A stretch of DNA of 63,140 nucleotides, the filler included, from Collodictyon triciliatum (Eukaryota), in assembly GCA_043381765.1 (NCBI GenBank). It is 6 parts of 6 records of this genome, joined end to end, with 100 filler letters (N's around TTAATTAATTAA, not from the genome) between each part and the next. Parts side by side here need not be neighbours in the genome. Positions count along the whole stretch, not along the records: positions 1 to 23,189 come from JBHJMP010000599.1; 5 more parts are not named here. The stretch is one strand, 5' to 3'. Under the pieces are notes generated by a model. It was not told the DNA's origin and did not search any database. It worked only from the letters and a program-made list of their open reading frames with translations. The position numbers and the translations under genes are program-made. Positions 1 through 60,678 of the stretch are shown piece after piece. How positions within the stretch are numbered: position 1 is the stretch's first letter; every line of letters starts with the position of its first letter.

Positions 1-711
1 CTACTCCCGAAACACCGCGCCCTACTTCTCAATATCTCCAACAGAGAGCTGTGGATAGGTGCGCGCGTAGTCCATGCAGCAACGACCTCTCCAGAATGCA
101 CCATGTGCCATAGTGGAGATGACTCTATCGAACACACATTTGTGAAGTGCTCTCTTGCTCAAAAAGTGACAGATTCTAGCCACAAGATGCTCTCTGAGCT
201 TGATTATGCTCCCAATCGACTCAGCGCGTCTCACATCCTGTTTGGCCCACAATACCAAATGACCCACGACTCTAGAATACTCTGGACAGTCACAAGAGGA
301 CATATGCTGTGGTCCTTATGGAGTGTGCGTGCATTCTCTCGCTGTAATGATTCACCCGAACGAGAAATCAATGTATCCATGTTGAAAGCCTCGTGCAATA
401 CAGCTTCCTGAACAGCCTGCTGAAACACGCTCGCATTCTTCGCTACTCTGACCGCAAGCGAAGAGAGATGTGGGAATGGGTCATGCGATATCTCCCACAG
501 CATATCCAACATCTGCTACCCACGCAGCCAATCAACTAGTTTGGGATGCCCTCCTGACCAACTCGCTATCGCTGACCTCTTTCCAGTGCTACCCTCTCCA
601 CAGTAGTGTCTTCCCCTACTCGCGTTTGCTCTCTACCATGCGCTCCCATCCCGCCCCTTGTATGGCATAACCTCGCTGTACTTTGAACCGAATAAAGATA
701 AAAAAAAAAAT
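1..711 (+). mobile_element. 3' end of non-LTR retrotransposon (L1/Tx1-like LINE), zf-RVT region, decayed
   Basis: CTMCHSGDDSIEHTFVKC is a CCHC zf-RVT motif; ends in AATAAA + A-run (~691-711); highly similar to 32522-33200; frameshifted. Confidence 0.85.
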
Positions 712-979
712 AATTATTTCCCGTGCACCAGGCATATATAGTTTCTTCTGGAACGAAATCGTGTTGAATACCAAAACATATAAGATTATACTTCATGGGT
801 AATAAACCACATGATATCAAATGATGAAATAAACGGGTTAAATAGCAAAGACAGAGAGAAATCAATTTTGATGGAAATATCTTACAATCTAATTATACTT
901 TAGATACGTGCCCAATAAAGGCAAACATCACAACAAATACTCATATCAAATAACTAAATAACTAGATAAATAAGGAAGG

Positions 980-1112
980 AAAAAGAAAAAAGAAAAGAAA
1001 AAGAAAAAGAAAGAAAAGAAAGAAAAAGAAAGAAAAGAAAGAAAAGAAAGAAAAGAAAGAAAAGAAAGAAAAGAAGGAAAGAAAGAAAAGAAAGAAAAGA
1101 AAGAAAAGAAAG
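980..1112. repeat. (GAAA/GAAAA)n simple repeat
   Basis: Seen directly. Confidence 0.95.
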
Positions 1113-1482
1113 GAATAGAATTCGATTAATATTAAAATGAACACAATTTTCAACCGCACGTATTATGATAGCTTGTCCAGAGCGCGACACGGAAAAGGCT
1201 GCAAAGAGTGTTTCGATAAGAAGTCGAGTTGCCTGCCTTCGGTATTTGCCGCGCGACAAGGAACATTTACACGGCAAATAAAACGAGTGCGCCGATTCAG
1301 CACGGGCAGCATTGGTCTCGCTGCGCACAACAAAGACAAACCCACCCAGTCCGCCGGGGTTCAACACACCCTTTCCCGTTTGCGAGGCCGCTTTACCCGC
1401 TTCCAATCCACAAACCCAATAAAGCCCACAGCCGCTTTTCTTCTTCTTGCTCCTCCGCACTTGCAGCGCACAAAGACGCGGC

Positions 1483-4400
1483 ATGGAGGGCGATCAGCAA
1501 GAGGAGCAGCCACGCCGCCCACAGACCGCCCCGCAAGCAGGCCCGTTTCTGACTTACCCCCGCACACAAGCGACGGGCAAACCCGCAAAGACATCCAACG
1601 CCTCAAGCACGTCGCCGTCTGCGCTGCTTCCACACCTGCCAACCTCTGCGCGCACAACACCCACGTCTGCGACAAGTGTGGCACATACACCTGCAGCCGG
1701 CCACCACGCGCTTCCCATGCCGCTTTCTGCACGCAATGCTGCGCCTTCGCCGCGTCGGGCCTTTGTGGAGCGGAGTTCCCCGTCTGCGCGACGGACATCG
1801 CAATCGTCATCTGCAAAGCCGCCTGCATCGGCCGCAACTGCCGCATCGCATCAGCGTCTGCGCACTCGCACAACTGCCACTGACTCCCTGGAAATCACTC
1901 TGCTCCCTTGCACACATCAGTCTCTGCCGTCCCAGCAGCCACAGTCATCTCGCATGGCTCTTGTATGGGCACCACCGCAGCGCAGAGACCAAAGTATACA
2001 GTCCCACGCCCCCGGCTCTCATCAGGCTCATCCTCACCGCAGTATCGAGGCCTTCATTCTCGCGTATGTGTTCTGTATCCGTATATACATTAACTATCCA
2101 TGGCTTGCAAAAAAAAAAAAAGGCGTATGTACTTACCTCGGTATGGCAAGACCACCGCGCTGCAGTTCTTGCTTTTATCTCATTTTTTTTAAAACAGGCT
2201 GGTGAACATCTTTGAAATATATTAACGTGCAGGAATGCAGCCCAACTGACGGCTCCGTCATCCAGAATACCATCAAAGCTGCACCTGTCAAATTCAACTC
2301 CTTTTGCTGCTGGTTTGGATGGAGAAGATGTTTGCAATTATACACTTATGCAATATTATGAGTCGATACTGTTTTATCATAAAAGATAACTCTTGTAGTA
2401 AAAATATTGCTCGAGTTATTGACTCTTATGATTCATCATACCACATATCCTTTTAAGTATGTAATCTCTATGAATTATAGGTATATTTTAACGAGCAGCA
2501 TAGAGTGTGGCAAACTCTTATATTTCCTAGTAAGTTTCCAAATAGTAGAAGTGAAGTTATGTATCTTTGTCAAGCAGTAGATGTCCTTTTGGGTGAATAT
2601 CAAAAATCAACGAAAATTAAAATGGCCAGGTTAATGCTGTATTTATTTTCTATCCCTCTATCGATTGTCATAAAACAGTTTAAAAAGGATAACATATTAA
2701 AATCGAAAGGAATAATTTTTTTTTAAAAAAAGAATGATAGCATATTGAAAATAAAATAATTTGCTTGATAGATTCAGTTTTATCTTTTCTTTTCTTGCTG
2801 TTAGTGAAAAATATCTTTGTAGTATATGGGATGCCACATCACATTCTAGAGAATCTGTTCACCACTCAAACGCAATTGAAATGGCTATCGCTCCAGAGTT
2901 TGAAATATGGAATACCACTCTTCATGAGTTAGTTAGACATGTAAGCATTTAGGCCGTTAATACATTATGTGAATGTTCAGTCCATTATATATACTCATCA
3001 TTTTTACCTATACTAACTGTAAGATGAAGAAACATGTTAGTGTTAACATTCATTTCAGTAATTCGACCTGATGGTTCATATTCCTTATTATAGGATACAT
3101 ACTGTGTTCTAATATCGTTGGTGTAATCCAGGTTTATTGTGGATGTTCTGAGAGAGGAATACTTCTTGAACTTGTTCAGACTAGAATACAGGACCTCTGG
3201 GGCTCCCTCTTTTCAGAATACCAGAAATTAAGAAGCGCTCATGGATCAATCAGGTTTCTCCTGGTCTTCAATTTAAACCGTCTATGTTCAGATAGGAAAC
3301 AAAGCATACTTTTTTTGCAAGATATATACCATATCATAAAATATCATATTACTGTACCATATGATGCGGCAAATAATAGATTTAACAAATAAAAAACCCC
3401 TTTTTTTGACTTTAATTGATTTGTATAGTCCTTCAAATTTGAATCAAACCACTGAGGGAGATACAGATAATCGAGAAGCAAAACATTCCTCAAGTGAAAA
3501 AGAAAAAGTACCAGTGATTTCCCCCATATTTTATTTACTGATTATTTTCCCCTTCTTTCAATATATTCGCTGATTATAGACATTTCATATATCTTAATGC
3601 ATGAATTGGTTTATATGATTCTGTTATTCAAAAATCACACATGTACTTGCAAAAGGTACGCACTCACTGAAGAACTTCATTTTTAAGACTTTTTTAAATA
3701 CCCTACGCAGGGAAGTACAATCACAAAAACTAGGAAAGACAGCATGTCCCTTTCAAAATCAGATTTCAGACGAGAAAGTGAATCTGAAACCATTCATAAA
3801 AGATCTGGTATTATCGAGGAAAATTGTAGAGAAAGCAACACACCATCAAATGCAGATAGTGAACTAAATGATTTTGTTAGTGGTCGAAAAGATGAGTGGC
3901 AGGTTATCTATGATTCCCCACCAGACAGTGACTCAGATGATTCAACTGTAGCCAGAGAACGAGATTTAGCCGAACTTAAGGCCTTTTATAACCTCCAAGC
4001 GAAACATAAGTAGGATAATCATGATAATTGGTCTATAGAACTGTTTTGTCCCTTTTAAGATTCGATTTACAGTTACTTTGAATGGTTACTGATCAGACTA
4101 TATTATTATTTTTCTCTACTCGATCTCATGCATAAATAGGCACCTTAAGGAGGAGGAAGAATTAAAAGCAAAAAGTGCGTCAGAAAAGGATAAAAAAGAT
4201 GAATCTCCTATTGATTGGTTTTCGGTTGGGGAAATCATTAAAAATGTACAACGAACTATCATGGACGTCCACATGAAGATATGCTTGAAAGATGTAAAGT
4301 ACATGAATATACATATGAATATACTTTGTGATAAGCCACCGGAGTTATTTAATTCATGATGTCCGGTATGCAATCACGGTTAATATTGTCTAACGACTTG

Positions 4401-7400
4401 TTTGCGGTTAGGGTAAACTATTTACAGCAGATGACCAGATTCATTACACAGAAATTCTTGATTCAATCGTTGTCGATCCGATAACTCTAACAGCACGATT
4501 GAGGGACACCCGTGAACTTTTAAATTACCTTCAAAATGAATTAATTAAGGAGAAATCTAAGGATAATGTAGCTACCGATACGATTGACCTCGCAGAATTC
4601 ATGAGCGAGGATAAGAAAGTAAATTTAGAGACTCATTCCGAGCAGACTGATTCAAAAGAAGCTGGCTCAAAAGAAGGACCAGATGCCGATAATTATTTAC
4701 CTCCCATATTTCAAACACCTACTGCGCAACGTGCAATCACACCTCTATCAGAGATTCATATGGTTGATAAATATATACAAGTGAATATAGGAAAGGTAGT
4801 TGGTTTATATTCGCTAGTTTTCATTTTAATATGTATTGTTGAGCAAATCAGCCAAAGAAAATATGACGCTAAAGTACCTTTTTCTTCTTCATTTTGGTTT
4901 TTTTTTTTTGAATGCAACATGAAGAAAAAATCGATATTCAAAGAAGACACCGAAGTTTTCACACAAACAGAGCAAATTGCAGAGGAGATAGCGATACAGG
5001 TTATATATGAATATTTCTCAATTTTCATACAACTGTCATCGCCGATATTTTTTTCACAAACTGCAGAAGGAATATATCTGTTATTAAATGTATAATATTA
5101 TTTCTCCCTAGACCTCCATCTGCGGGATAAATATGGATATTGATGTGCAAAAATGCAACTTAAGAAGGATTGGGTCATTTGGAGAATTTAGAGATAGCAC
5201 ATCTCCACTCTCGGTTGAGGGTATAGGGATTCTAGAAAGTCGGCTAAGTCCCACGGGGTTCGAGCTGAAAGACTATCTAGAAAGCATCGATTTATTTTCA
5301 GACGAATCTGTGGAAAGGCGTGAGACGGTTCGATTTTGACAACAATCACGAATAGAAAAATTATTTTCCTGATACATCCAACTCCATCTATAAATCCTGT
5401 ATCTTATGCTTCTTATATCGTTACATATGCTCCATTATCCTAGAGTTTGCAGGCTTTTTATCAAAAGTATGGAAAGAGCGCACATGATTTAGATATGTCA
5501 ACACAAAAAGACCTCATTCACCTTCAACACATGGACTTAACTAAGAGTGGCGATGGTTCACAATTACCCAGTTCAAATTCCTCTGAAAGCTCGTTCTGTC
5601 AGGCTGAGGCGGGTTATTTAAATGAGAGTAGCGATCAACTTTTATCACATACGAAAAAGAAAGCTCATAATCCTAAAAGACTTGCACCCGCCCCACCAAA
5701 AAGAAAGCAAAAAGAGGTTTGATTTTCATACAAAGTTTGATTGCTTAGTCTTAAAATGAGATAATCAAGTATTACTAGTTATCATTTATCTGATTTTTTG
5801 CTTTATTAAATTGCTTTAGTTTTTTTTCTTTCTTTCAGGAGCATAACTTAATTTTTTGATATACTCGATTTAAAATTTGGTTATCTTATGTAAGGCTCAA
5901 GCTGATATTGGATGCCAAGCTGACCCGCCTATTGAAATGCTTGGAAAAGATGAGCAGGAAATCATTGAAAAAAAAGTTCAAAACACACTCACAAACATAG
6001 TAGAGCGTTGGAAAAAACTAAAGTCGAGAAAACCCATCGAAGTTAAAGAAGTGCATGAGACCAAATCCATAGAAGTGAATACAGAGAAGGATGAGACGAT
6101 GGCTTCCTCTGACCTACCCATTCCAATAACAATAGATGAGCATGCATTTCTATGCGTACTATGCAGCAGAAGACTATCTTCATTAATGGACATTCAAACC
6201 CAAGTAAAAAAAAAAATCATTTACTTTTCCCTTTTCTTTTAAAAAAATCCAAAGATATACCCGCCATCTTTCACAAAATTGAAAGGGATAATTAAAAAAA
6301 AAAAGAAGGAAAGATATAGTGTCTTTAAACGCCGATATTGACCTGCTATATGATTTTTTTGTGTGACAAAATTGTCTACAAAGGTAGATAACCAGTAAAA
6401 AAAATTTATGAACGCGTTTTTTTTTTGCTTTTGTGCAATAGACTGAAGTAGCCGAGACACTTACACAAGAGGCGATTACCATCAATTTAATTGACAACCA
6501 AACTAAACCTACCTCTCCAACCTTACTTGGTATAATGGGTGGTCGGGAGTCACCAGAACGAATTAAAGAATCTGCTTTTGATCCTTTAGAACCTATCCAT
6601 CGAGTTTCCGTGGTACTGAGACAGGTTTCCTTTCCTATTATTTTTGGTGCAGAATTTTCTCAACGAAGTATGATAAAAGCAAAATAAAAAAATGCATGTT
6701 TTAAGAACCACAACGCGTCATATCATTAGCAAATGGCAGTAGAAAAGGTTCCTCCAGTGAACGATGTATCAAAAATTGTCCTGCTCAATACACGAGATGA
6801 CTCCAAAACAACAAGCGCCATGAAATCAGCGCGCAAATTCACACCTGAATCCATCGAGTTGGGTGAAATTTTGGCAAAGCACGCAAATTCCCCACAGCGC
6901 CCACCTAGGACGAAGCAGTGGATCAAAAAGTTTATCAAGTATTGAATGAATAATTTGCACATCGGAATCATTTTCCCTCAAACCATCCAAACGGACTAAC
7001 GTGTGCATATCGCAGAGATCTTTATACTTCGAAACAACAATCCGATTCAACATCTGATCTGCATAACATAGACCACATCCCTATGCCGCACTTTTTCCTG
7101 TTGTTTTTAAAGGTTTGTGTGCTTGAAAGGAAATGAATCCGTCTCTAATTTTCTTCTTCCTTTATTCGATTCATAGAATACGGCTCTAAGTTGGTGGATT
7201 TAGTATAAATATATTGAATTCATCCTTATATGAATGGCTCTATTTTTCTTCTATTTTCTTCTTTTTTAAAGAATCATTATGGCACCCGAAAGCTGGTTGA
7301 GCAACAATGTATGAGTGTCATACAAACTACACAGGTTATGAACTTTGAATGATTTGTCCTATGGTTTCCGTTTCTATCACGCTAATTCATAATAAAATAT

Positions 7401-10220
7401 CTATGATTAAATCATACCATGTGGATACTAATACAATCTATAGAACATTATTATATGCAGCAATGTGGCTGTATATGGTAACACTGTTTAGCCTAACCAA
7501 TTTTGCCTTTTTCTACACTATCAACTTCGCTCCCTTCAGGTCTACAGAGCCACCGAAGTTTTCGTGGACATTTTTGCCAGGTTTTTGGATGAATCATGGA
7601 GTGTTCACACATTGAATGCTTTTCTCAAGGTTTTTTTTTATGACGCACCACTTATTCAAACCTATTAAACATTATGTAATTTATTCAATATGCGCTGGAA
7701 TCCCAGTTTTCTTTTCGTGTAATCACATTTAATTACGTGCAGGAAACAGACCACTTATAAGGAAAATTTCTACTATATTTTTTCATTTTGATTGTTTTCC
7801 TTTTACAATAGGCTTTGATTTATACAGAAATATCCCAAGTAGGATATACTTATCCGAATTATCCCCTCGATTCAATGTACACCCGATACATTTGTTTTTT
7901 AAGATGTGAAGATGTATCAAGGTCTATTGAATGCCATCCATTTACCATTAATCAATATCTCAATCGGTCACTTTTATTTTGAAACATTATTGTGTTCAGT
8001 TCAACTTACATATGTGCATGAAGGAGAATATTTGGAGAGAGGCATCGAAAAGCAGATGACCAATACTATCAAAAGCTTATGGAGAAAACTGTGATTGCTG
8101 GTTCATCTCACTCTGTGGACCCGAGACAAACAGTATGATTAGATTTCTTGTTCATGTTTATTTTTTCCAATGAGGTTTTTCTTGAAAAAAATTTATGTTT
8201 GACTTTACTCTTAATGTTATTTTTCATCAATATTTGCCTTGGACTCAAAGAGAATCAGCCAAAAATTAAACTTGTCTTACACAGAACCTGCATTTAACAC
8301 GTTTGTGGATCTTTCCCCTTTCTTTCTTTCGATGTATTTATATGAACCTGCTTAATGCATCAAAATTGAGGGTTTATTTCTCGTGATAGCTCCTCTTTAC
8401 GATCATTTATTTTAGGGTCGAGCTTGGAGGAAACATCTTGAAAATTATTTTTTCAGATTTTCTATTCATATTGTGCTCTGAATTTTCTTTAATGCACCGG
8501 GATTACGTACGATGGCTGAAGAAATATTTTGACGATGTAGATAAAGATAGGTGATGCTACCATACAATCTTGAGGAATGAAATTTATTGAAGGGAAAAAA
8601 AAATATCTTGTACGAATGAAAAAAAAAAAACAACAAGATTTTAAAATGCTCGACCAATCTACTAAACCGCCCAAATTTATGCAGCGATGGTTACATAACG
8701 TATGACGAGTTGATAAATATGATCGGGCTTATTCTAAAATACTCTATCTTTGATCAGACGGAGGTTTGAATTTTATTGGACGGGAATGTTAGTGTGATTC
8801 GTTGGAAACCAGCTCTTGTATTCATGAATGATTGACTATTTATTCATTTTTCAGGTTCAAGCTTTCTGGAAAAGATATTGTGTGACACACTCCAGTAGTC
8901 CGGTCGAAGTTTGGCGCGATTCTTTTTTCCTTTTTTTTTTTTTTTGAAAAAAAGTAATTAAATCTTGTCGTTCTTTTCGGTTTGTATATTTGAATGCTGA
9001 TGCTACTGACCGACAAAATTGTTATATTTAAATACTTGAAACGTACTATTCACCGTGTAAATTGATTATTAAACATATATTCCAATATAGCTAATATCTT
9101 ACGATATCTTGAGAAATGCGCAAACCCCACTTCAAATACTTGTGGTCACTTTTCGAAGGTATCACATAAACTAATATGCATGACCCTTTATCAGAAAAAA
9201 GAAGTATCATAATCAAACACTTGGGGCAAAAAGTGAAAGACAACTCTTCAAGAAAAATACTCTTGGTGTAATCTAGAATAATGTATTTGATTATTTTGCT
9301 GAAGTTATCATACTAATTCATTTCATCATCAATCTGAAAGAACATGGGTTGCACCTGATGAACGAGAAGTATACATCCCAAAAAATTTTAGGAATCCCGA
9401 ATTGAACAACGTGATTAAGTGGGAAAGTGTATACATTGATTAAAAGCCATTCAAATTCACTTTATGTAGACCTAACCCCCGCTTTAGGGAGCGCTGGTCC
9501 AACATTGAGGGCAAAATAACATCCCACTTGGCAACTTTTACACAACTTCCTGGCCTTGGGAGTGAATGCGAGTTTATAAATGGGTATTGCCTTCTACAAT
9601 AACGAGAAAACAAAGGAAATAAAAATATATAAACAAAACGACCCATGTGTCACGTCCTTTTCATCAAAAGACAATAAAAAGAAAGGAAACACTCCGACGT
9701 AATTTTTGATTTATTTTTGGTTTAACTATGCGATTAGCCTTCAGAGAAACCTGATAACGCTCCTTAATTCCAAGGAGGATGGAGGAAAGGCTCTGTCGCT
9801 CTATCGCAAAATGCTATCGATGTTTGGGGGGCTCGTTATCCAGGTCAGTTGCTTTGGTACTTCATTTTCTTTATTTTTTGATAATATTTATATACAAAAT
9901 CATTTATTTGAATAAGTTATATTTTTTTCTGTATCTTTTTTTTTGGTAATTTTTTCCGAAAGGGAAGGTAAAAAAGAATTAAAAAGAAGAAAGAAGAGAA
10001 GTTGAACGCAATTGATTCATTCTTTTGCACCCGAACCACGTGACACAACAATTCAACCAGCATCACGTAACAACCACGATCCTTGTATCAGGGGCACCTG
10101 CATCACGATTTTCCTGGAAACCCATCGGACGATGACTCTGCATTGTACTCGTCCTGGATTCAACAGGAAGAGGATATAATCTGGAGGGTGGTTGAGCTAC
10201 TCGGCTCTCCACCGCGTTAG
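1483..10220 (+). CDS. Large multi-exon protein with axonemal dynein light chain (p28/AXDND1-like) domain, TQT-like motifs and C-terminal EF-hand
   Basis: Spliced exons 2824-2940 + ~3132-3253 give EFEIWNTTLHELVRH|VYCGCSERGILLELVQ, matching the p28/DNALI1 motif (ELIRQV..C.ERG.LL); exons ~8490-8763 give FDDVDKDSDGYITYDELINMI (canonical EF-hand); S/T/P/A-rich first exon 1483-2064; last exon 10092-10220. Internal exon structure partly inferred; could be two genes. Confidence 0.65.
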
Positions 10221-11349
10221 GGAAAGACCTTGGAGAAGTGTATCTTTAAGGATTCCAGGTTGAATCCTTTGAGAAAATTGGGTTAGGTTTGTCTGCAGTG
10301 GTCCTAGTGTTGTTGGTTGTTGCTGCATCATGCCTCCGAGTACTAATCAACCAAGCTCAAGCCTCCATGTCCATAAATCTGAGGTCTCCTGCTGATTGAG
10401 AGGGGAACAAAAAAATGATGGTGGCTGTGCTGTTGCGAGCGTTTTGCGTTTGCGAAGGGTTTCCTGATTAGGAATTTTTGATGTATTACATATGTGGAAA
10501 ATAATATATAATATGGTAATGCTGTTGTAGACTTGCACAAAGACTATGCAATAATATATTAAGCTAATAATGTAACTGTATGAATCTGGTCATCTTCGGT
10601 TAAATTCAGATACCCAGCGTCACCATGACGACTTGGTGATTCAATTTGCATCACCACGTTAGCTGTTATTGTCCCAGTATAGAAATTCCAGGTTAATTTT
10701 ATCCATATGAAGAATTTTGGAACAGATTTAGGTAGATGGTGCTAATAGAAAATTCCAGATATGACTACATCTGGTGACACACCTTTTCGTCCAATTGCAA
10801 GTTAGGCGATAGTTCTGCACAGTACGCATTTTCAACCGTGAGTGATTATTTTCTCATAAAGTTCCAAGGGTGGAGTGCTGGATGGTGTTGTGCAGATAAG
10901 GGATGGGGTGAAGAAAAAGCGCCGGGAAATATATCCAAAAGAAAGCGGCAGGGGAAACAACGCGTGCCCCAGCGAAGCACTTTTTTAAGCGCGGACGTCA
11001 TTGCGTTTTGCAAGTCAATTAGCAGGAGGCACCGAAAGGCTGTGATTCAGTGTTGGTTGCCAGCAAGTGGAGCCGGGTGGCAGAAGGAAGTGCAGCCGAG
11101 GCCAATCGATCACACTAGATCGAAGAGCGGTGGCAGCAGCAAAAGTGACACTTGTGCTCATCCCCATAAGCCGTCAACCAAATTATTGTCGGCACGCACA
11201 GCAAGCCAGCGTTGTGCGGGCATCGACTCCGCCTGCTCCTTTTACTGTTTCTCCTGCATTCGCCCCATATCCTCCTGGCTGTGCGACCTGCCACCACACG
11301 GCTGACAGACACACTCACGCCCACGCTTTTCTCTCGACAACCCGGCAGG

Positions 11350-12130
11350 ATGCAAAGGACATCACACACGCCAGCACAGGAGGAGAACAAGCCGCACCAC
11401 CCACCCGGCGTCAAGATGGCGTGTCCAAAGTGCGTGCGCGGCCACCGCGTGGGTTCCTGCACCCACTGGGCAGACCAGTCCATCCCGCTGCGCAGACGCG
11501 GCCGCCCACGCGCAGACGACGTCTCGCTGGCCACCATCAAAAAGTCGCCTTTGTTTCTCGCTGACATGCCACATCGTGATACTCTGTTTTGATGACCATC
11601 GCTCACGCAGAGTGTGTTTCTTGCAGGAATCTGTGTGTCCACTGCTGCGACAAGCCCGACCAGATCCAGTGTACGTGCGACCAAAGCCCCCTGCAAAAGA
11701 CGCAGCCTCACCCACGCCCAGGTCCACGCCTGCGTTTGCGTCTGCCACATATCCCCGCCCGTGCAGTGCACTCCGCGTCCGCTGCCCGTGACAGCCAGCG
11801 AGGTTGTTCCCTTCTCTATTGAGCACACATACGCACACAACCGCGAACAGAGCAAAGAGCAGAGAGCAACACACAAACCCGCATTAACCCACGCTCTTTC
11901 CAGGGGAGGACGAGACGCCGTCGCCTGATGCTAAGGATATCGAGGCCAAAGCACCCGAGCCATCTGCACCCCTGCGCATGTGCCCCTGTGACTGTGCCTA
12001 CACGCTGTGCCCCTGCTGGACATGCATCGCCTCGCAGTGCCCGTGCCTCGACTCGTGGGACCTTTCTGCCCTGCTCTCGCCCGCTGCGACCACCGCCCCG
12101 TCCTCCCCGTCTTCTGCAACCACTATCTGA
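11350..12130 (+). CDS. Copper-fist DNA-binding transcription factor (Mac1/Cuf1/Ace1 family)
   Basis: Exon 11350-11543 GVKMACPKCVRGHRVGSCTH...LRRRGRP; exon from 11627 NLCVHCCDKPDQIQCTC; last exon 11904-12130 CPCDCAYTLCPCWTCIASQCPC; splice phases consistent. Confidence 0.85.
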
Positions 12131-12401
12131 GCATCCTTGCTCCCTTACTCTCTGCTCTCGTTCCCTGTTTCGGCTCGCTCTCCGAAATCCGCCCTCCCAC
12201 TTGCACATGCCCCTTCTCTTTCTCCTCTTGCTGTCTTGCACTCGTCGCCTCTTGTCTTGTTCTTTCTTCAGAGTAATTTGTCCCACCTGCCTAGCTCTCC
12301 ATTCTCCAAACTACCATTCATAAACAGAACCTGCTGTCCCCTTGGTGTTTGCAATCGGTCTCTATTTATGACGGGACGCAAGTCGGCCTGGGTTAGGCTG
12401 A

Positions 12402-12617
12402 TCAGAAGCAGTCGAGAACTGCGATAGTGTACGCTCCGTGGGCCAGCGCTGTCAATATTGCTCCGCCAAATAGTCTTCTCTGCAGGACTGGGTTCTTGCG
12501 GAAGCCGATCCGGATCAACGGCAGCAGCGGTGCATACGCCAGTGGGGCAAGAAGCAGCATGTTTGGGCCTCGCTTTGGTGGCTGCTCTCTATCTTTCACT
12601 TCCGGCTGCTTCTCCAT
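12402..12617 (-). CDS. Small hydrophobic protein of unknown function (paralog A); may extend to an upstream exon
   Basis: PLAYAPLLPLIRIGFRKNPVLQRRLFGGAILTALAHGAYTI; ungapped 31/55 aa identity to 13547-13789. Confidence 0.75.
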   Translation of the reverse strand: MEKQPEVKDREQPPKRGPNMLLLAPLAYAPLLPLIRIGFRKNPVLQRRLFGGAILTALAHGAYTIAVLDCF

Positions 12618-12725
12618 CTGTGTGATATGCTTTTCTGCTCTGGCTCTTTCTAAAGCTGCCCTGTCGGTGACTTTTGTGGGTCAGAGAGAGGAAGGTGGGA
12701 TGGATAGGTGGACAAAAGGGGATGA

Positions 12726-12901
12726 AAGAAAAAAAGAAAAAGAAAAAGAAAAAGAAAAAGAAAAAGAATAAAAGAAAAGAAAAAAAGAAAAAAAGAAAAA
12801 AAGAAAAAAAGAAAAAAAGAAAAAAAAGAAAAAAAAGAAAAAAAGAAAAAAAGAAAAAAAAGAAAAAAAGAAAAAAAGAAAAAAAGAAAAAAAGAAAAAA
12901 A
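12726..12901. repeat. A-rich (GAAAAAAA)n simple repeat
   Basis: Seen directly. Confidence 0.95.
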
Positions 12902-13546
12902 GGGGCTTATGTCCGTTGTGGAGTGATTTGTGACGGAATAGTGGTTGTACCAGAGGCCCTTGCTGGGCAGCTCAATAAGGACAATACTCTTTTTCTTTCC
13001 TTTCTTTTCTTTTATTTGCGCTCTAAAGAAACTCGCAGTGGTTGTTGGCTGACGATAAGTGTTCAAACTATTACAAATGACAACAAAAAAATACTGAAAA
13101 AAAAGGATCTGGATATCATTTCAACCTTGCTGCCGGTTATTTCCGCCTTTAAAATCAGGCTAATTAAGTGGGTCCAAGGGCAGAGCAGAACTCTCGTGTT
13201 TTACAAGCAGGTCACAACCAACATCGCTGGCGATGCGCCTCAATGTGATTGTCTTTATTACCGCCCATGTTTTTTTTTTTGAAAGAAAAACAACAATGAC
13301 TCCGCAGGATTTTAGAGCAAAGTTCTTTCTCGCATAGAAGAGCCACAAATCAAAGATTCGTACGCCAAGAAAATCTAGAGGGTGCCCCAATATCATTTTA
13401 TTTTGGCTGGCTGAGTGTTTTACTTGGGGTGATATATACTTGTCCAGACTGAATGCATGCAGATTAACAGAGAATGAGGATTGAGAAGAAAAAAAAGACA
13501 GTGATGTAAAGCTGTGCTCATCTTTGTTTCGTCTGAATAAAGTGAA

Positions 13547-13789
13547 TCAAAAGCAACGTAAGTGTAAAATGGTGTATACTCCGTGAGTAAATGCGCTGCA
13601 TATTACCGTCGCAAATCCAACCCTTTGGAGAATCGGGTTATGCCTCAGGGTAATGCGAGTCAGCGGTAGCATGGGTGCATAAAAAAGGGGGACTACCAGC
13701 AGTGGACTTGGACCTTGCTTCGACAGTTGGTATTGCTTCTTTGCCAGTTGGCGCTCTGCTTCTGCATCTAGGACTGTATTGGCGCTCAT
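13547..13789 (-). CDS. Small hydrophobic protein of unknown function (paralog B)
   Basis: PLFYAPMLPLTRITLRHNPILQRVGFATVICSAFTHGVYTI; protein-level conservation with paralog A despite DNA divergence. Confidence 0.75.
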   Translation of the reverse strand: MSANTVLDAEAERQLAKKQYQLSKQGPSPLLVVPLFYAPMLPLTRITLRHNPILQRVGFATVICSAFTHGVYTILHLRCF

Positions 13790-14848
13790 CCTCGAAACTG
13801 ATTCGGCGTATTTTAAGTTTTAATAATGTTAAAAAGATATCGAAATCGCAAGTGTTTGGACGATATGGCTTAGGATGGTGACAGAATCAGCCACTGATTA
13901 CTAGCGGAGTCTGCAGCATCATCTCCTGACATAAAAAGTGTCTCGAATCTAATCATTTCGCATTTTTGATTATGAAATGCGACTTTATCTTATAAGTGGG
14001 GCCATTAACTATTTGTTGCAAACACAAAGACACCCCAAATCCCGCTCGAAGGCTCCTCTGCAGCCCATATACCGGCGTCAGGGGTTTAACCGCCCGCTAC
14101 AATTAGCCTATTGGGTGGATGATTTCCATTTACGGAATTATTAGAATTAAGATTATATATTAATATTAATCGGATTAATGGATAGTATAGACATAAATCA
14201 TATGAGCATATAATAATTGTATATATACATAATGTTTCCATTACTTTGTGGTTTTACATAATTAGTAAATTTCACTGAATCTACCATGAGTGCGTCCCAA
14301 AACACCCAGTCAATACATGATTTTGAATTTCCACGAGAATACTCCAGTGATCAAACACATCAACGCGTCGAATACACTGGCGGACGTGGCCTATTATGTG
14401 CGGGTGGCGGAGTGGCTCCGGTGCGGGGGTGCGATCGGCGATGGGCAGAGAGATTTTTATATACATGCAGAGAGAGAGAGAGAGAGTGGCACACACTCGG
14501 AGGGCCCCTTAAGCGACGCGGACGACTCTTCGTCGTGTTCTCGGATCATGTTAGAGCGATCCAGCCCACACGGACAGGGCGATCACCTGTTGCGCAGCCT
14601 CTGCATGAAGCCTTGCCAAAAAAAAAAAAAACAAAAAACAAAAACTTTGTCGGGCCACAAGGCCGGCATTCAGAGTCACAGCTCTTGTTGTACCCTGTAA
14701 ATGTGTTCCCGCTTACTTCTGAGGCAGCTTGAGCCGCGCTCTATCTCCTCCTGCTTTGCTCCTCCCTTTTCCTTTCTTCTCGGCTTGAGTCTGCGGCACC
14801 CGCAAAAACTCACCTGCACGTGACACAGATCCTTTCGAAATCATCAGC

Positions 14849-16710
14849 ATGGAGTCCAACGGAGCCGGTAAACAAGGCCGCATCAAACAAGTGGAAAAGA
14901 TCCTCGCCAACAACAAGGACCTTGTGAGCTGACTTTGATATTTTTGCCTCTATTTATCTTGTCAGTGGTAACGCAAACACTTGTATATGCAGAGGTACTA
15001 AACTGGTTTCTCCACACTCCCCAGGTTCTCTTCTTGCAGGACATTCTCCTGTGGAATCTCCCTGGCCTCTTCTTGGGCCTGCTTGCTGCTTTTACCTTCT
15101 ACTATGTGTAAGTCTCAGACTTTTCCTCTGATCTGTAACCACTCGTTTGGTCGTTTTCGCTTTGCCTTGTGCTTCACCAATCGGCTCTGGGGACTCAGTC
15201 ACAATGCTTTCTGACACACTGTGCTTACTTTACTGCAGGTCGCTATTCTACTCAGAGTCCACCATCCTCAGCAACCTTACGCTCCTGATCATGTTTGGCC
15301 TGATCGTTCGTTTCCTCTACGACATCTCTTTGGTCTCGCACAAGAAGCAGCTCGTATGCTAATCTCGATCCTACCTGCCTGTTTTTTTTTTTCTTATGTG
15401 TGTAATCTTGTGCCAACATGCCGTGACACTTTCTCTCTCGTCAAGGGCGAACAAAACAAAACAAAACAAAACAAAACAAAACAAAACAAAACAAAACAAA
15501 ACAAAACAAAACAAAACAAAACAAAACAAAACAAAACAAAACAAAACAAAACAAAACAAAAACGCGTCTTGGATGCCTACCATAACTCCTCATCTTTTTC
15601 TGCCAGAATGCTGCGATTGTTAACTTCCACAAGTCCCATGCTCGTAAGAATGTCGACCCCTACTCCATCTCTGAGTTGGCTGCTATCGCTATCAAGATCG
15701 AGGAGCTCCCAGTTCAGATCGTCGGCTACTTTGACGGAATCAAGAGCAAGAGCAATTCTTTCGTATGTTATCTATGAAACATGTATGTGTATACGTTTCT
15801 TATTATGTTTCCTATTTGGATGAGCTGATTTCGTATGTTCACCATATCAATGGTACTTACAATACTGTCAAATACATAGTTTTCTGGACTCCTCATTCTG
15901 ATCCTTTATGGGCTTTCCTTCTTGTTTGACCTTCTCCCTGGTGCTATTTTCTTCTACTTAGTGGGTAAGTATGATATAAAACTGCTTATAAGTGCTCCAT
16001 TCTCCAGCCACATAGAGTATCAATCGTATTTTTGTAATACGATGCACCCACCCAAAGCTGAAAGCGTGCCTTTATACCCTGCTTTCATACAAAGTCATTC
16101 TAAATCTGAATCTCCCAGACGTATTTACCTTAGCAATTAAAGCTAACACGCTTTTCTGAACAGGAATCTTAGTTCTTTGCACCCCTCGCATCTACCGCAG
16201 CGACTACCACCTCGTCTTCTACAAGTACACTACATCGGACCCTAACAGATATGAATACACTTTCAACACCACGCAACATATCAGCTCACTTGACACTATC
16301 ACAGGAAAACCGTGGATGCCATTCTTCTGGCCGACAGCTTCATCCCCCGTGCCGCAGCCGTCAGCGGAAACGTGCAGCAACGCACACTCAAGGATCTCCA
16401 ACAGATGGCCACTGAGGGCATCACAAACGCTTCGGCCGCCCTTCAGGAGGGGTACCAGCAGGCCCGCCACCAGATCGAACACGTGAAGGATAACCTGCCC
16501 CAATACATCGAGCAGGCCCAGCGCGAGGTCAAGGAGCAATCCAAGATCATCGTTCAAGACCTGCAGAAGCAGGCCGAAGTCCTAGCCCAGAACGTCCAAC
16601 AGGAGGTCCAGGAGCAGCTTTCCAACCCAGAGAACCAGAAGGCGCTCTATGAGGCCGCCATTTCCATTGCGCAGACATCCTCTGCCCAGCCCGACGAGGA
16701 ATCCAAGTAA
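14849..16710 (+). CDS. Reticulon-homology-domain ER-shaping protein (ARL6IP1/RETREG-like), 7 exons, Q/E-rich helical tail
   Basis: KQVEKILANNKDL|VLFLQDILLWNLPGLFLGLLAAF..., two long hydrophobic hairpins, then LVLCTPRIY; GT-AG phases consistent. Confidence 0.75.
15450..15563. repeat. (AAAAC)n intronic microsatellite
   Basis: Seen directly. Confidence 0.95.
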
Positions 16711-17393
16711 GGGAGATGCTTCATGCATGTCTCTGCTGCCCTTCATCCCGCCGCACCAGAAACCGCAGCCAAAAGAAAATCGCATCCATCCATCCAAAAT
16801 GCATATCTCCTCCACTCTTTATTTCCCACTTTCCCTTCACGCCCCTTATCCTTCACTCCATGGCCATGTTCTTGTGTCTTCTCCTTGCATTCACGAGCAA
16901 CTTGAGGACGCCGGTCAGAAGCCACGCAAAGACGCGGCGGGCGCATACACACTCTTTTTTAGCCGGGCCCTTGGATTTTGCCGTTCAGGAAGAGGAGAAT
17001 GCTTGACTTGGCCCCTCTCGAGGTCACCCGAATAAACTCTCCATCCCCTGAGTTCCCCCTCGTGTCCAGTGCATCAACCCTTCCTGGTGATGCCGCGCCC
17101 AAACACCACGCACAGCAGCAGATTTTAGAAGGGTTCCTTGATTCAAGCTGCTGCCACGAGTGCGAGATTGGGAGCGTTCTGCCTACGCCGACAATCATCA
17201 CCCTACCGAAAGAACGTGAATTGGCCTAGAATATGCTTTTATGAATGCATTCACTAAACAGCAATCATTCTCGCGTCAAATAGTCCGCTGGTCGGGCGCA
17301 GACAGCGCGTCCTCTCCTCTGCAATCGGAATCCGCGGGTAGAAGTTGCCGTTTGTACATGTCCTGTGGCTGCATCGCACAGAGAGGCGGGGTG

Positions 17394-18439
17394 TTATGGA
17401 TGCGGTGAATATGACAGAAAGGCAAGCGGAAGCTGATCGAAGGAGGCGGGCGGCTCTCCTGCGCAGCACAGATATTTGCCGCCGTCTTCAAAGTCCTGTA
17501 GTGTCCGGATGATAGTTGAGCGATCTTGCCGGTAGACCTACATGCGTGTTGCAGATTTGAACGGGCATCCAGAAAAAAATACCACATAAATAAGAAAGGT
17601 CAATGAGGCATATCATAGTACACTGCGTTCTATGAATGATACTATGGAGAAAGGAGGTGGAGAAAAGATTTGGCTAGCATGATGGTAATATATGCCAAGA
17701 TTATTGTTGCTTTTATTGCCTACTTTTTTAACTGCTCCGGTGCACAATTTCAAAATCCTCGTCATGTCATCCAACACCTGCTGGAGATTCTTGTAATGCC
17801 CCTTGACTATCATAGACTCACCTTCGTGATGCTTGTCACCTTACATACAAGGAAAAGAAAATAAAAATAAAAAAAAGACAAACTCCGTAAAGGTCTTGTT
17901 AGCGAATGCGTGTCAAGTGCATCTCAGCCATCCAATATATAAATTAAATAAAAATGAATAATCAGGGGAGGATGAAAGCGCAGTCAGGGAAAGTACCGTT
18001 TCGGAAGATTGTTACCACAGGCGGCTTTTTTACAACGGAGCCACTCCGCGGCTTTTGAATTGGGGAGGAAAGCCCACCCCGTTTTCTATCGAGCCGCGAA
18101 GTGGACTGGACATAAGGATCACGAGTTGCAGAACACGTCCAACCTGTTGAATTATCGCCAGGCTTTAGAGACTCATCCTGGCTTCAAAGTGGCGGATGCA
18201 GCAGGCTGGTGAGACACAAACCCGAAAACTCAACCACGTCCTCTCGGCCGGCCAAGCCTCGTCCGTGTCCCTCGTGGTCGAACCGCTCCCTGTGAGAGCC
18301 CTATACAAACGCTGTCACTCTAAGAAGCACAATAACCAACAGGACAGACAAAAGCGTCCACACACAGCAAATCAACTAGGCAAACCGTGAAAGAGGCAGG
18401 ATCTGCGAGCCGCTCAAAGATGCTTGCCTTTTGGGACAT
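17394..18439 (-). CDS. Apicortin (partial p25alpha/TPPP domain + doublecortin domain), 5 exons, 179 aa
   Basis: Exons 18439-18386, 18300-18222, 18143-17997, 17839-17724, 17537-17394 splice in frame: SIFERLADPASFTGSHRERFDHEGHGRGLAGRED ... TIFRNGDKHHEG ... TGAVKKVY ... FEDGGKYLCCAGEPP. Confidence 0.92.
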
Positions 18440-19325
18440 AAAGCTCCCTGGTGCGCTCGTGTATTCGAAGGAGGCTTGGGTTTGCGAAGAGGAGCGAGCA
18501 AGGAACAAATCTGGCGTGGGCAACGAAGAGTCACTCCATTAAGTCGAGAGTGCCACTTGCTGAGGTTGGCCATCCACCATCCTGAACTCCATGTTGCTTA
18601 TCCCCAATTTTTTTCTTGATTGTTTTGTTTTGCTTGACCCTTGGATCGAGTTCTGGACTCAGTGTAAGTCACGGACGGCTCGGTGAGAAAATACCAGTGC
18701 TGCGGCCAATTTCTAATGAGCTTCGCGCAATAATCTGCGTACAGCAGTGATTAACACCTTCTCATAGTTTCTTTTTTGATAGCAATTTATCTCATGGTTA
18801 AATAGATTTATAAGTAAATCAAGGAAGGAAAGAGAAGTGGAAAAGAAAATGATAAACGGGTGATGAAAATAGAACAGTGGATTCCCCCGACTATCTTGAT
18901 TATCTTTGAGATTTTGAAGCTTGTGTTTCAAGTGGAGTAGGTAATATAGGGAAAGGAGCATGACAACGAGTGAGCGTGTTTGGAAACGATTTCGGTTCCA
19001 TGTTATTTTTTGTCTCCTTTTCTCGGGACAAAACTCGTAGTCCTGCCGAATAGCAAGTGTAGGAGAATAACAACACGCCACGAATTTTTCTGGCGAGGCG
19101 AGAGGGAAAGACCGATAAACAGCTCTCCATAAAGCAGAAGCAAAGAGCTAGGCGCCGCATTTTACATTCCGTCTGCTATTTTCGTTATTTTTCTCTTTTT
19201 TTAAAAAAGGATTATGTGTTTTCATAGACGTCATTAAAAATGACCGAGTGATATTAATAGATACTTGGTATGGAGAATATGTTAAAATGGCAAACAAAAA
19301 AACAAAAAAGAAACAACAAAATACC

Positions 19326-19867
19326 CTTTCCCTCTACTCCAGTTCCAGACGTCATATTTAATCTACCAGAGAGCGGGCTGTGATGTTCATTCGTCTCTTG
19401 TAGCCTAGGCAGGGTTCGCATTCTTTCTGATTCATGCAGAGACACTTGATGGCGAACTCTAACGTGGTTTTCATCCCACCATTTAAGGCAAGCCTGTTTT
19501 ATGTGGGTCGTAGGGATTAGAAGGGGAAATACGAGTTTTTTTTCTTATTAATTCAAAATATTTCTTGATATATATGACAAATCCTCTATCGTTATGTTTT
19601 TATTTCCTTTTTTTTTTATGGCAGATAGACTTCCTTAGAACCATCTAAGGGGTTGATATAATACCTCTTCTGAGTATATATTTTTGATGAAGCCAACAGC
19701 TTGTATGGTGAATGAATGCCCAGGTATGTCGTATGCAACGTAGGCGATGATGGAGTCCTTCAAGAGAAATCAACGCCATTTAAACATATGCAATGGAACT
19801 TGAATCCTGCAACTAAAATATGGACGCACTACGGGTAATATTGGGACATATAAACATCTTAACCAGT

Positions 19868-19966
<99 letters not shown>

Positions 19967-22529: not shown

Positions 22530-23289
22530 CGAAGACCACCGGCTAAAAGAAAAGGTAGGATGTTGCGAATTGACGGGGCGATGATAGGTTCGGTAGAATA
22601 ATACAGCATAGCCGCTTTAAAGCCCGGGCGTATTGTGTTTACAGAAGTGATGCTTTTTTTTTATTAATGTATTATGAATAAAAAAAAAAGCATCAAGAGG
22701 CGAGTGAAAAAAAACACAAAGAATGGCGCGGCACTCTAATGTTTAGACGCGTTCGGATGGCTGACAAAAGCGCCTTTTTCATTCACAGTCACTCTTGCTC
22801 TTCACGCCGACTTGTATGCCAGGCAACTCAGGAAGCGCACATAAATAAACGCTTGTCTGGATGGTCTGTGTCTCCGTGGCTTTTCTCCGTATCCTGCGAT
22901 TCTCGCCCGTTCTTCCCTTGTGATGAAAACGATCAAAAATCAAGAATCAAAAGGAACAAAAAATAGGACGAACATTTTTGGAATATATAATTAATTGGAA
23001 AATGTCTGTGTGCGGTGGCATTTTCTATGTTTTCATTCTTTGATTCGCAAATGAAAGCTCCAATTTCAGTCGCGGCGGGCACCGTGATACAACAAATCAA
23101 AAAACAAATAAAAAAAACACAACAAAAAAACACAAATAAAAAAAAACACAAATAAAAAAACACAAATAAAAAAAAACACAAATAAAAAANNNNNNNNNNN
23201 NNNNNNNNNNNNNNNNNNNNNNNNNNNNNNNNNTTAATTAATTAANNNNNNNNNNNNNNNNNNNNNNNNNNNNNNNNNNNNNNNNNNNN

Positions 23290-30707: not shown

Positions 30708-31362
30708 TGCTACCATTGACAAAGTCTGCCAAACAACCAAGGGCTTGTGGGCGTTTGACTCCTCCAACGCATGGGCCATCAAGGACAACATGGAAACGAA
30801 ATCGTGAAATGGAATAAAATTCAAGCTCTCATCACAAAAAAAAAAAATACTATGCGTGTTTGGCGATGTTGATGCAATGTATTTCCCAGATATGGCATCG
30901 ATTGATATTTAACCTAATCAGATTATCATATGTGGAATTCTCTGGTTTTGGGGTGGATGTTTGGTATGACCTCAGACTGTGTTGGAATGCAGGCCAGACA
31001 CAAATCACCACAAATCACAATTGTGGCAACGCAAATGGCACGGCGACTGGCGGCTCTCGTGTTTGCTCAAGTGGCCACATGCGGGTCTCAGAGGAGTTCC
31101 CTGCAGCCCAACGATATTGACTCTCATATTTCTCTTTTTTTCTCATATTCCTCTTTTTCTTTTTTTTTCTCTTTTTTTCTCTTTTTTTCTCTTTTTTTCT
31201 CTTTTTTTCTCTTTTTTTCTCTTTTTTTCTCTTTTTTTCTCTTTTTATTTTCTCTTTTTTTCNNNNNNNNNNNNNNNNNNNNNNNNNNNNNNNNNNNNNN
31301 NNNNNNTTAATTAATTAANNNNNNNNNNNNNNNNNNNNNNNNNNNNNNNNNNNNNNNNNNNN

Positions 31363-33215
31363 TCATCTTGCGGTCTCCCGAAGGCGCCACACTCGCCAAC
31401 AAATGCATGCAAGAATACACACGAGCTGTCGGCGGGAAAATCAACTACGACAAGACAGATGAAATTCTTTTTGGGTTTCAGGATGGACTTATGTTTCTAG
31501 GAAACATTTTGTGGAAGCCACCGTCACATCCACTCAATTATCTTGGCATCATCTTCGATTCACAATCGGATAGCAAATGGACAAGCCTGGTTGAGGACAT
31601 CAAGTCGAAAATATCAGTGTGGAGCAACTTTCATCTTTCGGACGTTGGGAAAGTAAGGTTGTCGAACCAAGTGATGCTGTCGACCCTTATCTACAACATG
31701 AAAGGCACTTTGCTGAATCTCAAGAGGCTGAAGGGGCTGGAAGATATCTGCCGCAACTTCATCACTACGAATAATCAAAAATATAAAATCAAGACGCTCT
31801 TTAAGCCACCTACAGAGGGAGGACTGGGACTCATAACGCCTGTCATTGCATGGACATCACTCACGATGAGATGGTGGACAGATATGCTTACTCATCCGAA
31901 AGAGTTTTGGCAGCGTGGAATGTGGCATCTTATCCACCGCTTATGCCTGAACTTCAAGGCACAGCTCTGTGAGAGCAGAATCCCATCACCTTTGCCAAAC
32001 ACGCCCGAGCCGCTACTAGCGCGGTGGAAGATTCCGAATACAAACTATGAAATGTGCGAGTATATCCAACTACATGCTGGTACAGGCCAACTTTGCTGGG
32101 ATAGAGCAAAAGGCTTCTGTATCATCAAGTCGAGAGAAGGAAACAGCTCATTCATCCTGCAACAAGTCACTTTTCAAAAGGATGGAAGCTTCACACTGCC
32201 GAAAAATGCAACGATATTTCACTCCTCGAATGCAGCCCCAACCACAGCCGTCCTGAACAACAAAGGAGAATGGCGCTCACGACGTCCCATCTCATACGGA
32301 GCGTCGTCGCCATTTTTCTTTCCCCTGAAGAACCAAAGGCGGTCCATTACGCCTGATTCTCCGCAATTCTCGATGGCCACGACGTATTCTCCAAGCTGTT
32401 TCGATATAAAATCATCAGCCCGAATCCCTACAAACCGGAGAAAATGAGTCGCTGGGCCGAAACTATAGGCATTATAGCCCCGCCGATAGTCAAAAGCTGG
32501 AAGCAAGCCCGTATGCCTCAGCTACTCCCGAAACACCGCGCCTTTTGCCCAATATCTCCAACAGAGAGCTGTGGATAGGTGCGCGTGTAGTCCATGCAGC
32601 AACGACCTCTCCAGAGTGCACCATGTGCCATAGTGAAGGTGACTCTATCGAACACGCATTTGTGAAGTGCTCCCTTGCTCAAAAAGTGACAGAATCTTCC
32701 CACAAGATGCTCTCTGAGCTTGATTATGCTCCCAACCGACTCAGTGCATCTGACTTCCTGTTTGGCGCACAATACCAAATGACCCACGACTCTAGAATAC
32801 TCTGGACAGTCACAAGGGGACATATGCTGTGTCCTTATGGAGTGTGCGTGCATTCTCTCGCTCCAATGATTCACCCAACGAGAAATCAATGTATCCAGGC
32901 TTGAGAGCCTCGTGCAATACAGCTTCCTGAACAATCTGCTGAAACACACTCGCATTCTTCGCTACTCTGACCGCAAGCGAAGAGAGATGTGGGAATGTGT
33001 CGTAAGATATCTCCCACAGCATATCCAACCCCTGCTACCCACGCAGCCAATCAACCAGTTGGGTCGCCCACATGACCAGCTCGCTATCACTGACTTCTTT
33101 CCAGTGATAACCTCTCTTCACAGTGGTGTCTTCCCTTACTCGCGTTTGCTCTCTGCAATGCACTCCTATCCCGCCCCTTTGTATGGTACCTCGTTAACTT
33201 AAAATTGAATAAAGA
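31363..33215 (+). mobile_element. Decayed L1/Tx1-like LINE: RT C-terminal/thumb, zf-RVT and C-terminal tail; 5' part lost in gap
   Basis: KINYDKT, LNYLGIIF, LSDVGKVRLSNQVMLS, LFKPPTEGGLGL, CTMCHSEGDSIEHAFVKC; several frameshifts; AATAAA at ~33209. Confidence 0.9.
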
Positions 33216-53189: not shown

Positions 53190-53363
53190 NNNNNNNNNNN
53201 NNNNNNNNNNNNNNNNNNNNNNNNNNNNNNNNNTTAATTAATTAANNNNNNNNNNNNNNNNNNNNNNNNNNNNNNNNNNNNNNNNNNNNAGTGAAAGAAC
53301 AGTCTCCTTAGAGCTGCTCTTTATTTGTGAGAAGGGATTTAATTGGTTTGGTATTTTCTGTAG

Positions 53364-56603: not shown

Positions 56604-57380
56604 CTATGTATGGAATTTTGTCGTGTATTCATTCAAATATGTCCTAATAAGTGTAAATTATATGAATTAATATGTCTCTTTTATTCTATCCCTCATCTCC
56701 AGCCGGTCACCCAACCACACGCGATTGATCTCGATCACGAATCGAAGCTGAGCTTTCCTGCAGCAAGTGCAAAAGGAGGAAAAAAAAAGAAAATAAAAAA
56801 GAAAATAAAAAAGAAAATAAAAAAGAAAATAAAAAAGAAAATAAAAAAAATAAAATAAAAGAAAGCAAAAAGAAAAGGAAAAATAAAAAGAACAAAATAG
56901 AAAATAAAAAGAAAACATAAATAAAGGAAAAAACAAAATAGAAAATAAAAAAGAAAAAGGAAAAGAGGATAAAAAAGAAAAAAGAAGCTGAGCCAAATAG
57001 AATACTTTGAAGTAGCTGAAGCAGACACAAATCGCAAACAATGCCAGCACGATCAAAACACACAGTCAAGAACCCTGCAAGCCAGAAGCTCAACAATAAT
57101 TTTTTTGAAGAGACGCAATATATTGTTTGAATGAGAGTATATTAAATATTATGCTGAACAAAGGAAAGACAAAGTCTCTGTAATGCCCGCTGATTGTCGT
57201 GTACAAAAGAGTTCGCTGCAGACCAGCATATACACCCACACAAACCCTGTTGACACGAACCCTTCCTTTATCGATCCAAGACACCTAGCATCTCAATTGC
57301 ACACAACTACCCAGAAGGCACATTTTTTTTCCCTCCTTGTGTTCTAGGAGTTTACCCAGAAAGAATCTTTCAGTCCTCCA

Positions 57381-60249: not shown

Positions 60250-60678
60250 GTATGGTGCATGCATCTATGTTTCGTATTATGAAGAACTATTTTGGCGGTA
60301 TTCTATTTATTGCTTTTATATACGCAGTTTTTTTTATTTTCTTCGAGTGTGATTTGCACATTTCACGAAAACGCACTTGTTGCTTGGGCGCATTCTTTAT
60401 GCAAATCTAGAGATGAGAACCACNNNNNNNNNNNNNNNNNNNNNNNNNNNNNNNNNNNNNNNNNNNNTTAATTAATTAANNNNNNNNNNNNNNNNNNNNN
60501 NNNNNNNNNNNNNNNNNNNNNNNCACCGAAGTGAGCAGTCAACAAAAGAAAAAAAAAAGGGGGGGGGGGGAGTTAAAAAAAAAAGGTTAAGAAATCAAGA
60601 AACAATAAATACAGATTCTAGATAGAGAGAAAATACAAAAATGTATATATGGGACCTAAAATGTAAGAAAATCCATAC

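Follow-up and report, generated by a model that had tools for sequence, protein, structure and literature searches.

The window, a 63,140-nucleotide stretch of DNA, carries at 11350..12130 on the plus strand a gene for a compact copper-fist transcription factor of 198 amino acids. The gene call is secure: a profile score, a match to a solved zinc module, the positions of the family motifs and a spliced, polyadenylated transcript agree on it, and with it the first-pass annotation of this locus, which had proposed such a factor from the sequence, was confirmed. We think it fairly likely that this is a functional, transcribed nuclear gene, the public runs that cover it being read as cDNA, and that its product is, by analogy with known family members, a metal-responsive, Cu(I)-sensing factor, probably of the Mac1/Cuf1-like, copper-off kind. 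The family is regarded as fungal, and the evidence on the host leans modestly in favour of a non-fungal organism.

The gene consists of three exons on the plus strand (11350-11543, 11627-11802 and 11904-12130). The coding part of exon 1 (11350..11543) begins with the ATG at 11350-11352 and covers residues 1-64 together with two bases of codon 65, encoding a 19-residue N-terminal extension and then the copper-fist domain. Intron 1 (11544..11626; 83 nt, GT..AG, phase 2) is followed by exon 2 (11627..11802; residues 65-124 in part), which contains the first cysteine group behind the fist and a Pro/Arg-rich linker. After intron 2 (11803..11903; 101 nt, GT..AG, phase 1), the coding part of exon 3 (11904..12130; residues 124-198 and the TGA at 12128-12130) encodes an acidic stretch, an eight-cysteine cluster and the tail. 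Starting at the first ATG that follows the 5' junction, the spliced frame stays open over exactly 198 codons. These limits are exactly those annotated at first pass, and the length falls within the ~170-200 aa that had been estimated.

Both introns are absent from contigs of two public runs. X1 and X2, both from one study, have small contig sets, and their RNA nature is a software guess only, no listed run being on record as RNA. Each run has one contig on the gene, and both contigs are without exactly 11544-11626 and 11803-11903, with GT..AG borders. Past 12338 the X1 contig ends in 23 unaligned A, at a place where the genomic sequence is not rich in A, and letters at three contig ends presumably derive from a template-switching cDNA oligo. 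Because of the GT..AG joints, the poly(A) and the oligo-like ends, we take the contigs to be cDNA derived from an mRNA that was spliced and polyadenylated. The contig joints fix the reading frame, and the frames that had been joined by eye proved to be the real ones. The sole difference within the gene is at 11660, where both cDNA-like contigs have A and the window has C (D76E).

Downstream, the 3' UTR (12131..12338, plus strand) is 74% pyrimidine on the coding strand and has an ATAAA at 12320-12324, with poly(A) added after 12338. It faces the 3' end of a convergent minus-strand gene (12348..12680), which was covered by X1 record 2 and X2 record 4 with 20 loose T before 12348. No Pfam family was found on the last ORF of this neighbour, which is separate from the copper-fist regulator. 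The two poly(A) sites are 9 nt apart (12338-12348), each with a CATAAA-like signal upstream, a tight packing of 3' ends compared with the long AT-rich spacers elsewhere in the window.

The copper-fist DNA-binding domain spans residues 20-53 (11407..11508, plus strand), as delimited by PF00649, PDB entry 1co4_A and motif positions. In the profile check that the first-pass annotation had proposed, exon 1 (11350-11541, 64 aa) scored 47.1 bits against Pfam PF00649 Copper-fist (E 1.6e-12, profile positions 5-38/39), compared to a curated gathering cut-off of 25 bits; longer versions of the ORF scored 46.6 and 43.9 bits. Among 300 window ORFs scanned with Pfam, namely the first 300 of 483 listed, covering 1-37 kb, Copper-fist matched one ORF only and zf-RVT two. 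Exon 1 also matched 1co4_A, the zinc module of Candida glabrata Amt1 (E 2.7e-4), with three Cys, the His and the GRP aligned. The zinc site C25, C28, C37 and H39 has the spacing C-x2-C-x8-C-x-H and aligns to the Amt1 ligands, and the family motifs R30-G-H-R33 and R50-G-R-P53 are both present. The entire signature noted by eye, K22-x-A-C25-x2-C28-x-R-G-H-R33-x2-S-C37-x-H39, R50-G-R-P53, C68-x-H70-C71 and C80-x-C82, was recovered letter for letter.

Excerpts of PMC6354809 describe the fist as C-X2-C-X8-C-X-H plus (R/K)GRP, link (R/K)GRP to minor-groove binding, establish through mutagenesis the need for the Cys, RGHR and GRP residues, and place the textbook domain at residues 1-40. Here the fist lies at residues 20-53, not at the extreme N-terminus, and profile positions 1-4 are unmatched; this is a difference in position, not in fold. 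From its sequence, the module is predicted to bind DNA. A single-sequence AlphaFold2 model of exon 1 had a mean pLDDT of 49.2 and was set aside. No orthologue was obtained at E <= 0.01 among 39 candidates from a word-index search of longer proteins, which is weak evidence, and a pattern search for exon 1 confirmed 0 of 598 pattern matches in JGI metagenome contigs. One of 21 matches was confirmed in IMG/VR, on contig L001 at 3001-3108; it falls within a phage tail gene in the wrong frame, the contig has no PF00649 match, and it was rejected as a false positive.

The 198-residue protein (pI 8.6) has 16 cysteines, all of them in three groups. Residues 1-19 form an extension that is absent from textbook copper-fist proteins, and the first group of cysteines follows in the fist itself. 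The group behind it, the first outside the fist, C68-x-H70-C71-C72 ... C80-x-C82 (11634-11678), comprises five Cys and one His; it begins 15 residues past RGRP and lies within 30 residues of it. A Pro/Arg-rich linker (residues 83-123) and an acidic stretch (residues 125-142) lead to the C-terminal cluster C150-x-C152-x-C154-x4-C159-x-C161-x2-C164-x4-C169-x-C171 (11981..12046, plus strand), located by regular expressions on the spliced translation. Within it, the REP-like core C-x-C-x4-C-x-C-x2-C has one match, at residues 152-164. The full REP pattern with His has no match in the spliced protein, residue 167 being Ser; C169 is the next ligand, where the sixth REP ligand could be. The tail after C171 is acidic-hydrophobic and then Ser/Thr/Pro-rich.

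These groups resemble elements of two kinds of copper sensor, for both of which we draw on excerpts of PMC6354809. Mac1 REP motifs consist there of five Cys and one His (in A. nidulans AnMac1, C339, C341, C345, C347, C350 and H353 for REP-I, with REP-II residues at 470-484), and those of yeast Mac1 bind Cu+ and bring about intramolecular repression induced by copper. In the Ace1/Amt1 type, a Cys-X1-2-Cys run right behind the fist builds a polycopper cluster.

By analogy, a Mac1/Cuf1-like copper-off activator is the most likely single mode of action, with a probability that we put somewhat below even. It is favoured because the largest cluster is C-terminal, REP-like and placed within the probable activation region. 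On this model, Cu(I) would be sensed by cysteine thiolates, and the eight-cysteine C-terminal cluster C150-C171 would be the main sensor; the acidic stretch 125-142 and the acidic-hydrophobic tail, which flank the cluster, would be the likely activation region. When copper is scarce the protein would activate copper-uptake genes, as Mac1 and Cuf1 do, and once Cu(I) occupied the cluster, the C-terminus would bend back over the fist, turning off activation or DNA binding. The group of C68, H70, C71, C72, C80 and C82 may additionally alter DNA binding in response to copper, as happens in Ace1/Amt1, and the Mac1-like and Ace1-like modes may be combined in one protein. The missing REP histidine and a length far below that of AnMac1 weigh against this reading. 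So do a fist that starts only at residue 20, the lack of a recognised copper-related gene beside it among the window ORFs scanned, and sites for the yeast Mac1 consensus, TTTGCKCR, that occurred in the window at chance level (12 matches compared to 11.9 expected). Nor is a REP-like cluster proof of it, because the REP motifs of Aspergillus Mac1 are dispensable for the low-copper response (PMC6354809, in excerpt).

Two other readings accept the protein and differ on what it senses or when it is active. Its small size and the cysteines directly behind the fist also fit, at the level of sequence, a detoxification activator of the Ace1/Cup2/Amt1 type, switched on by excess copper and acting on metallothionein-like or efflux genes. 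In such a protein a polycopper-thiolate cluster would organise the DNA-binding region, and the C-terminal cluster would be extra capacity or part of the sensor. The length of 198 aa, the Cys/His group from 15 residues past RGRP and the fact that the only solved relative is Amt1 all favour this alternative. Ace1-type proteins have eight cysteines behind the fist, whereas merely five Cys and one His are found here, and the largest cluster is instead C-terminal with the REP-like spacing that is a hallmark of Mac1/Cuf1; we therefore regard an Ace1/Amt1-type activator as fairly unlikely. We give a distinctly smaller probability to a copper-fist protein that has ceased to sense copper, or that responds to Zn, Cd or Ag, with clusters serving as structural zinc sites or as a metallothionein-like buffer. 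Yeast Haa1 is a family member that responds to something other than copper, the REP histidine is absent, and no copper-related gene was recognised beside the copper-fist gene among the window ORFs scanned. However, sixteen Cys in CxC/CxxC arrangements are typical of Cu(I)-thiolate binding, and the spacing of the REP core is kept.

That the gene is neither native nor functional, and represents fungal contamination, a recent unexpressed insertion or a chance frame in GC-rich DNA, appears very improbable. Its coding sequence does form a GC-rich island (65% GC, GC3 0.73) amid flanks of 37-38% GC, as a foreign or spurious gene might, but other genes in the window are GC-rich islands too, such as the HADHA exon at 71% GC. 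The assembly runs without a gap from 1 to 19966, which ties the gene to ~11 kb of unbroken sequence upstream and 7.6 kb downstream, and the same two runs hold spliced, polyadenylated contigs of both the gene and its convergent neighbour. A chance frame might be suspected from the spliced mRNA (11349-12338), in which frame +2 is stop-free for 262 codons with an Arg/Pro/Ala/Ser-rich, low-complexity translation. Against this, the alternative exon-1 frame had 2 low-scoring matches among 1.84 billion proteins in an exhaustive HMMER search, and no Pfam family was found on the alternative-frame ORF 11306-11788. We read the second frame as a by-product of GC-rich, pyrimidine-rich composition, and we retain the native copper-fist gene.

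The 5' end of the transcript may bear a spliced leader. An AG acceptor after a pyrimidine tract lies at 11347..11348 on the plus strand, to which a leader of 26 nt is attached, one nucleotide short of the ATG; the 26 loose letters stand ahead of 11347 in X2 record 3, that is, in one contig of one run. With up to 3 mismatches allowed, the window, whose 11.3 kb upstream of the gene are free of gaps, gave 0 matches to the leader. Neither a 23-mer of it in JGI metagenome contigs nor the full 26 nt in prokaryote genomes or in the literature searched gave a match, and these leader searches of JGI metagenome contigs and prokaryote genomes found no SL RNA gene. The leader differs from those given for Guillardia and Paulinella in PMC5619915 and PMC6053224, and in Guillardia leaders that land 0-1 nt ahead of the ATG are common (PMC5619915). 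The X2 contig stops after the 26 leader letters, while adaptor-like contig ends stop 21-22 letters in; such a stop appears to fit a de Bruijn assembler that meets sequence common to many molecules. The 26 nt may reflect spliced-leader trans-splicing, in a host for which none has been described; a far upstream 5' exon is also possible. To our knowledge, spliced-leader trans-splicing is not found in fungi.

Whether this gene is unusual depends on its host. The statement in the first-pass annotation that the domain is generally regarded as fungal has backing in the literature: in excerpts, PMC5415576 calls the copper fist exclusive to fungal genomes, and PMC10406608 lists it among families originating within (early) fungi. 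The copper-fist row in the supplementary data of PMC10406608 has 0 for each of its first 11 clade columns, followed by 0.125, 0.5, 1 and 0.583; the species list, with 8 chytrids, 2 blastoclads and 1 Olpidium, fits these fractions, from which we infer the identity of the columns. Literature searched for copper fists in Holozoa, opisthokonts, amoebae and algae returned fungal transcription factors only; Pfam/InterPro may list non-fungal members. According to the same excerpts of PMC10406608, Velvet, Gti1/Pac2 as well as STE-like families were once considered "fungal-specific" and occur in Capsaspora, Salpingoeca, Corallochytrium or Fonticula. The copper fist would undergo the same kind of correction if the host is non-fungal.

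For the host itself we turned to other genes in the window. As annotated at first pass, HADHA is present, as a large minus-strand exon (43288-45132; 615 aa, 71% GC, GC3 0.91) with ECH and 3HCDH domains. ARL8 and DCTN1 were upheld at domain level, by an Arf-family exon (ARL8-like, 45414-45878, minus strand, GC3 0.56), which lies 4 kb from the HADHA exon, and by a CAP-Gly exon; no KIFBP or flagellar gene turned up among the window ORFs scanned. The best relatives of the HADHA exon have 49-57% identity in pairwise or tree alignment, with none above 57% among the matches listed. Of the 120 matches listed, 48 could be named (35 by source organism name, 12 by EukProt accession and one by what we take to be its gene prefix), and none of these 48 was fungal. 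They include Rhodelphis, two amoebozoans, choanoflagellates, Cafeteria, oomycetes, Corallochytrium, Chromosphaera, Pigoraptor, Ancoracysta, animals and one bacterial MAG. A quick ML tree was built from the window sequence and 38 of the 120 listed matches (all EukProt-named, some NCBI-named and 14 top unnamed ones). In it the window joins Squamamoeba and three metagenome sequences with an SH-aLRT of 92, not starred, on a branch 0.73 long and with a composition that departs from the alignment. The window HADHA groups weakly with an amoebozoan, apart from the clade formed by animals and other holozoans. This tree is no placement; it shows only that the database contains no close relative with HADHA.

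Two freshwater or lake metagenome runs each contain two 151-nt pieces identical to the window, indicating that the organism occurs in fresh water. Taken together, HADHA, the possible leader and an AT-rich, microsatellite-rich genome lean away from ordinary fungi, on thin evidence. A zoosporic fungus is slightly less probable than another opisthokont or amoebozoan protist, or than another eukaryote; the latter two are equally probable, and none of the three reaches an even chance. We tentatively entertain, at slightly less than an even probability, a gene native to a non-fungal freshwater protist with a spliced leader, in which case the family would not be a fungal invention and the protein could resemble an undivided ancestral sensor.

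If the host is non-fungal, either the family is older than Fungi or an inter-kingdom transfer was followed by domestication, with introns and host-type processing. A host that is not an ordinary fungus would therefore shift the origin of this copper-sensing switch or document a transfer, and one small protein with Ace1-like and Mac1-like cysteine groups could resemble the ancestor of both fungal sensor types. It would also be a minimal natural sensor of 198 aa, convenient for biochemistry and biosensors. If the host is a zoosporic fungus, the result is the ordinary annotation of a rare but expected gene.

Several other features of the window were observed. It is AT-rich with GC-rich gene islands, full of microsatellites, and has 19 N gaps, many beside microsatellites. 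Paired 44-N gaps 12 bases apart occur at 23190-23289, 31263-31362, 39357-39456, 53190-53289 and 60424-60523; the others are 100-N gaps and one of 568. The microsatellites that many gaps abut are long and include poly-A/T, CT and pentanucleotide repeats. Gaps abutting microsatellites point to an assembly limited by simple repeats. Pfam identified zf-RVT in retroelement ORFs at 1-411 and 32410-32904 on the plus strand. They belong to two non-LTR retroelement tails (1-411 and 31311-32904, plus strand) with translations near-identical over ~100 residues, and this retroelement was probably active recently because the translations of its two copies are nearly identical. At 57348-60410 (plus strand), ORFs that on visual inspection look like an ArfGAP zinc finger are followed by GGFPGM(T/G)Q repeats in a long series, an arrangement like that of AGFG; two ORFs of this region had no Pfam match at E <= 0.01. 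No Rfam family reached the gathering score, and a PDB search with two neighbouring ORFs gave 0 matches.

Among known systems, the low-copper activators of the copper-fist family are Mac1 (S. cerevisiae, Aspergillus) and Cuf1 (S. pombe, Cryptococcus). They share with the 198-aa protein an N-terminal fist, C-X2-C-X8-C-X-H, RGHR and (R/K)GRP, and the C-terminal five-cysteine REP spacing within a probable activation region is Mac1/Cuf1-like as well. The protein is far more compact, with 198 aa in total, whereas REP-II of AnMac1 already lies at 470-484 (PMC6354809, in excerpt). It has one cluster, not two, with the REP His replaced and extra C-x-C pairs flanking the REP core to give eight cysteines, and its fist starts from residue 20, after the 19-residue extension. 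Unlike Mac1 and Cuf1, it comes from a host that is not a known fungus, and its function is predicted from sequence.

The high-copper activators of metallothionein genes are Ace1/Cup2 (S. cerevisiae) and Amt1 (C. glabrata; PDB 1co4). Five Cys and one His stand behind the fist in the 198-aa protein, compared to eight cysteines in Ace1, and we know of no Ace1/Amt1 protein with an additional eight-cysteine C-terminal cluster. What it has in common with these proteins is its small size, the zinc module, the GRP and the direct match to 1co4_A, and its cysteines and histidine close behind the fist are likewise Ace1/Amt1-like.
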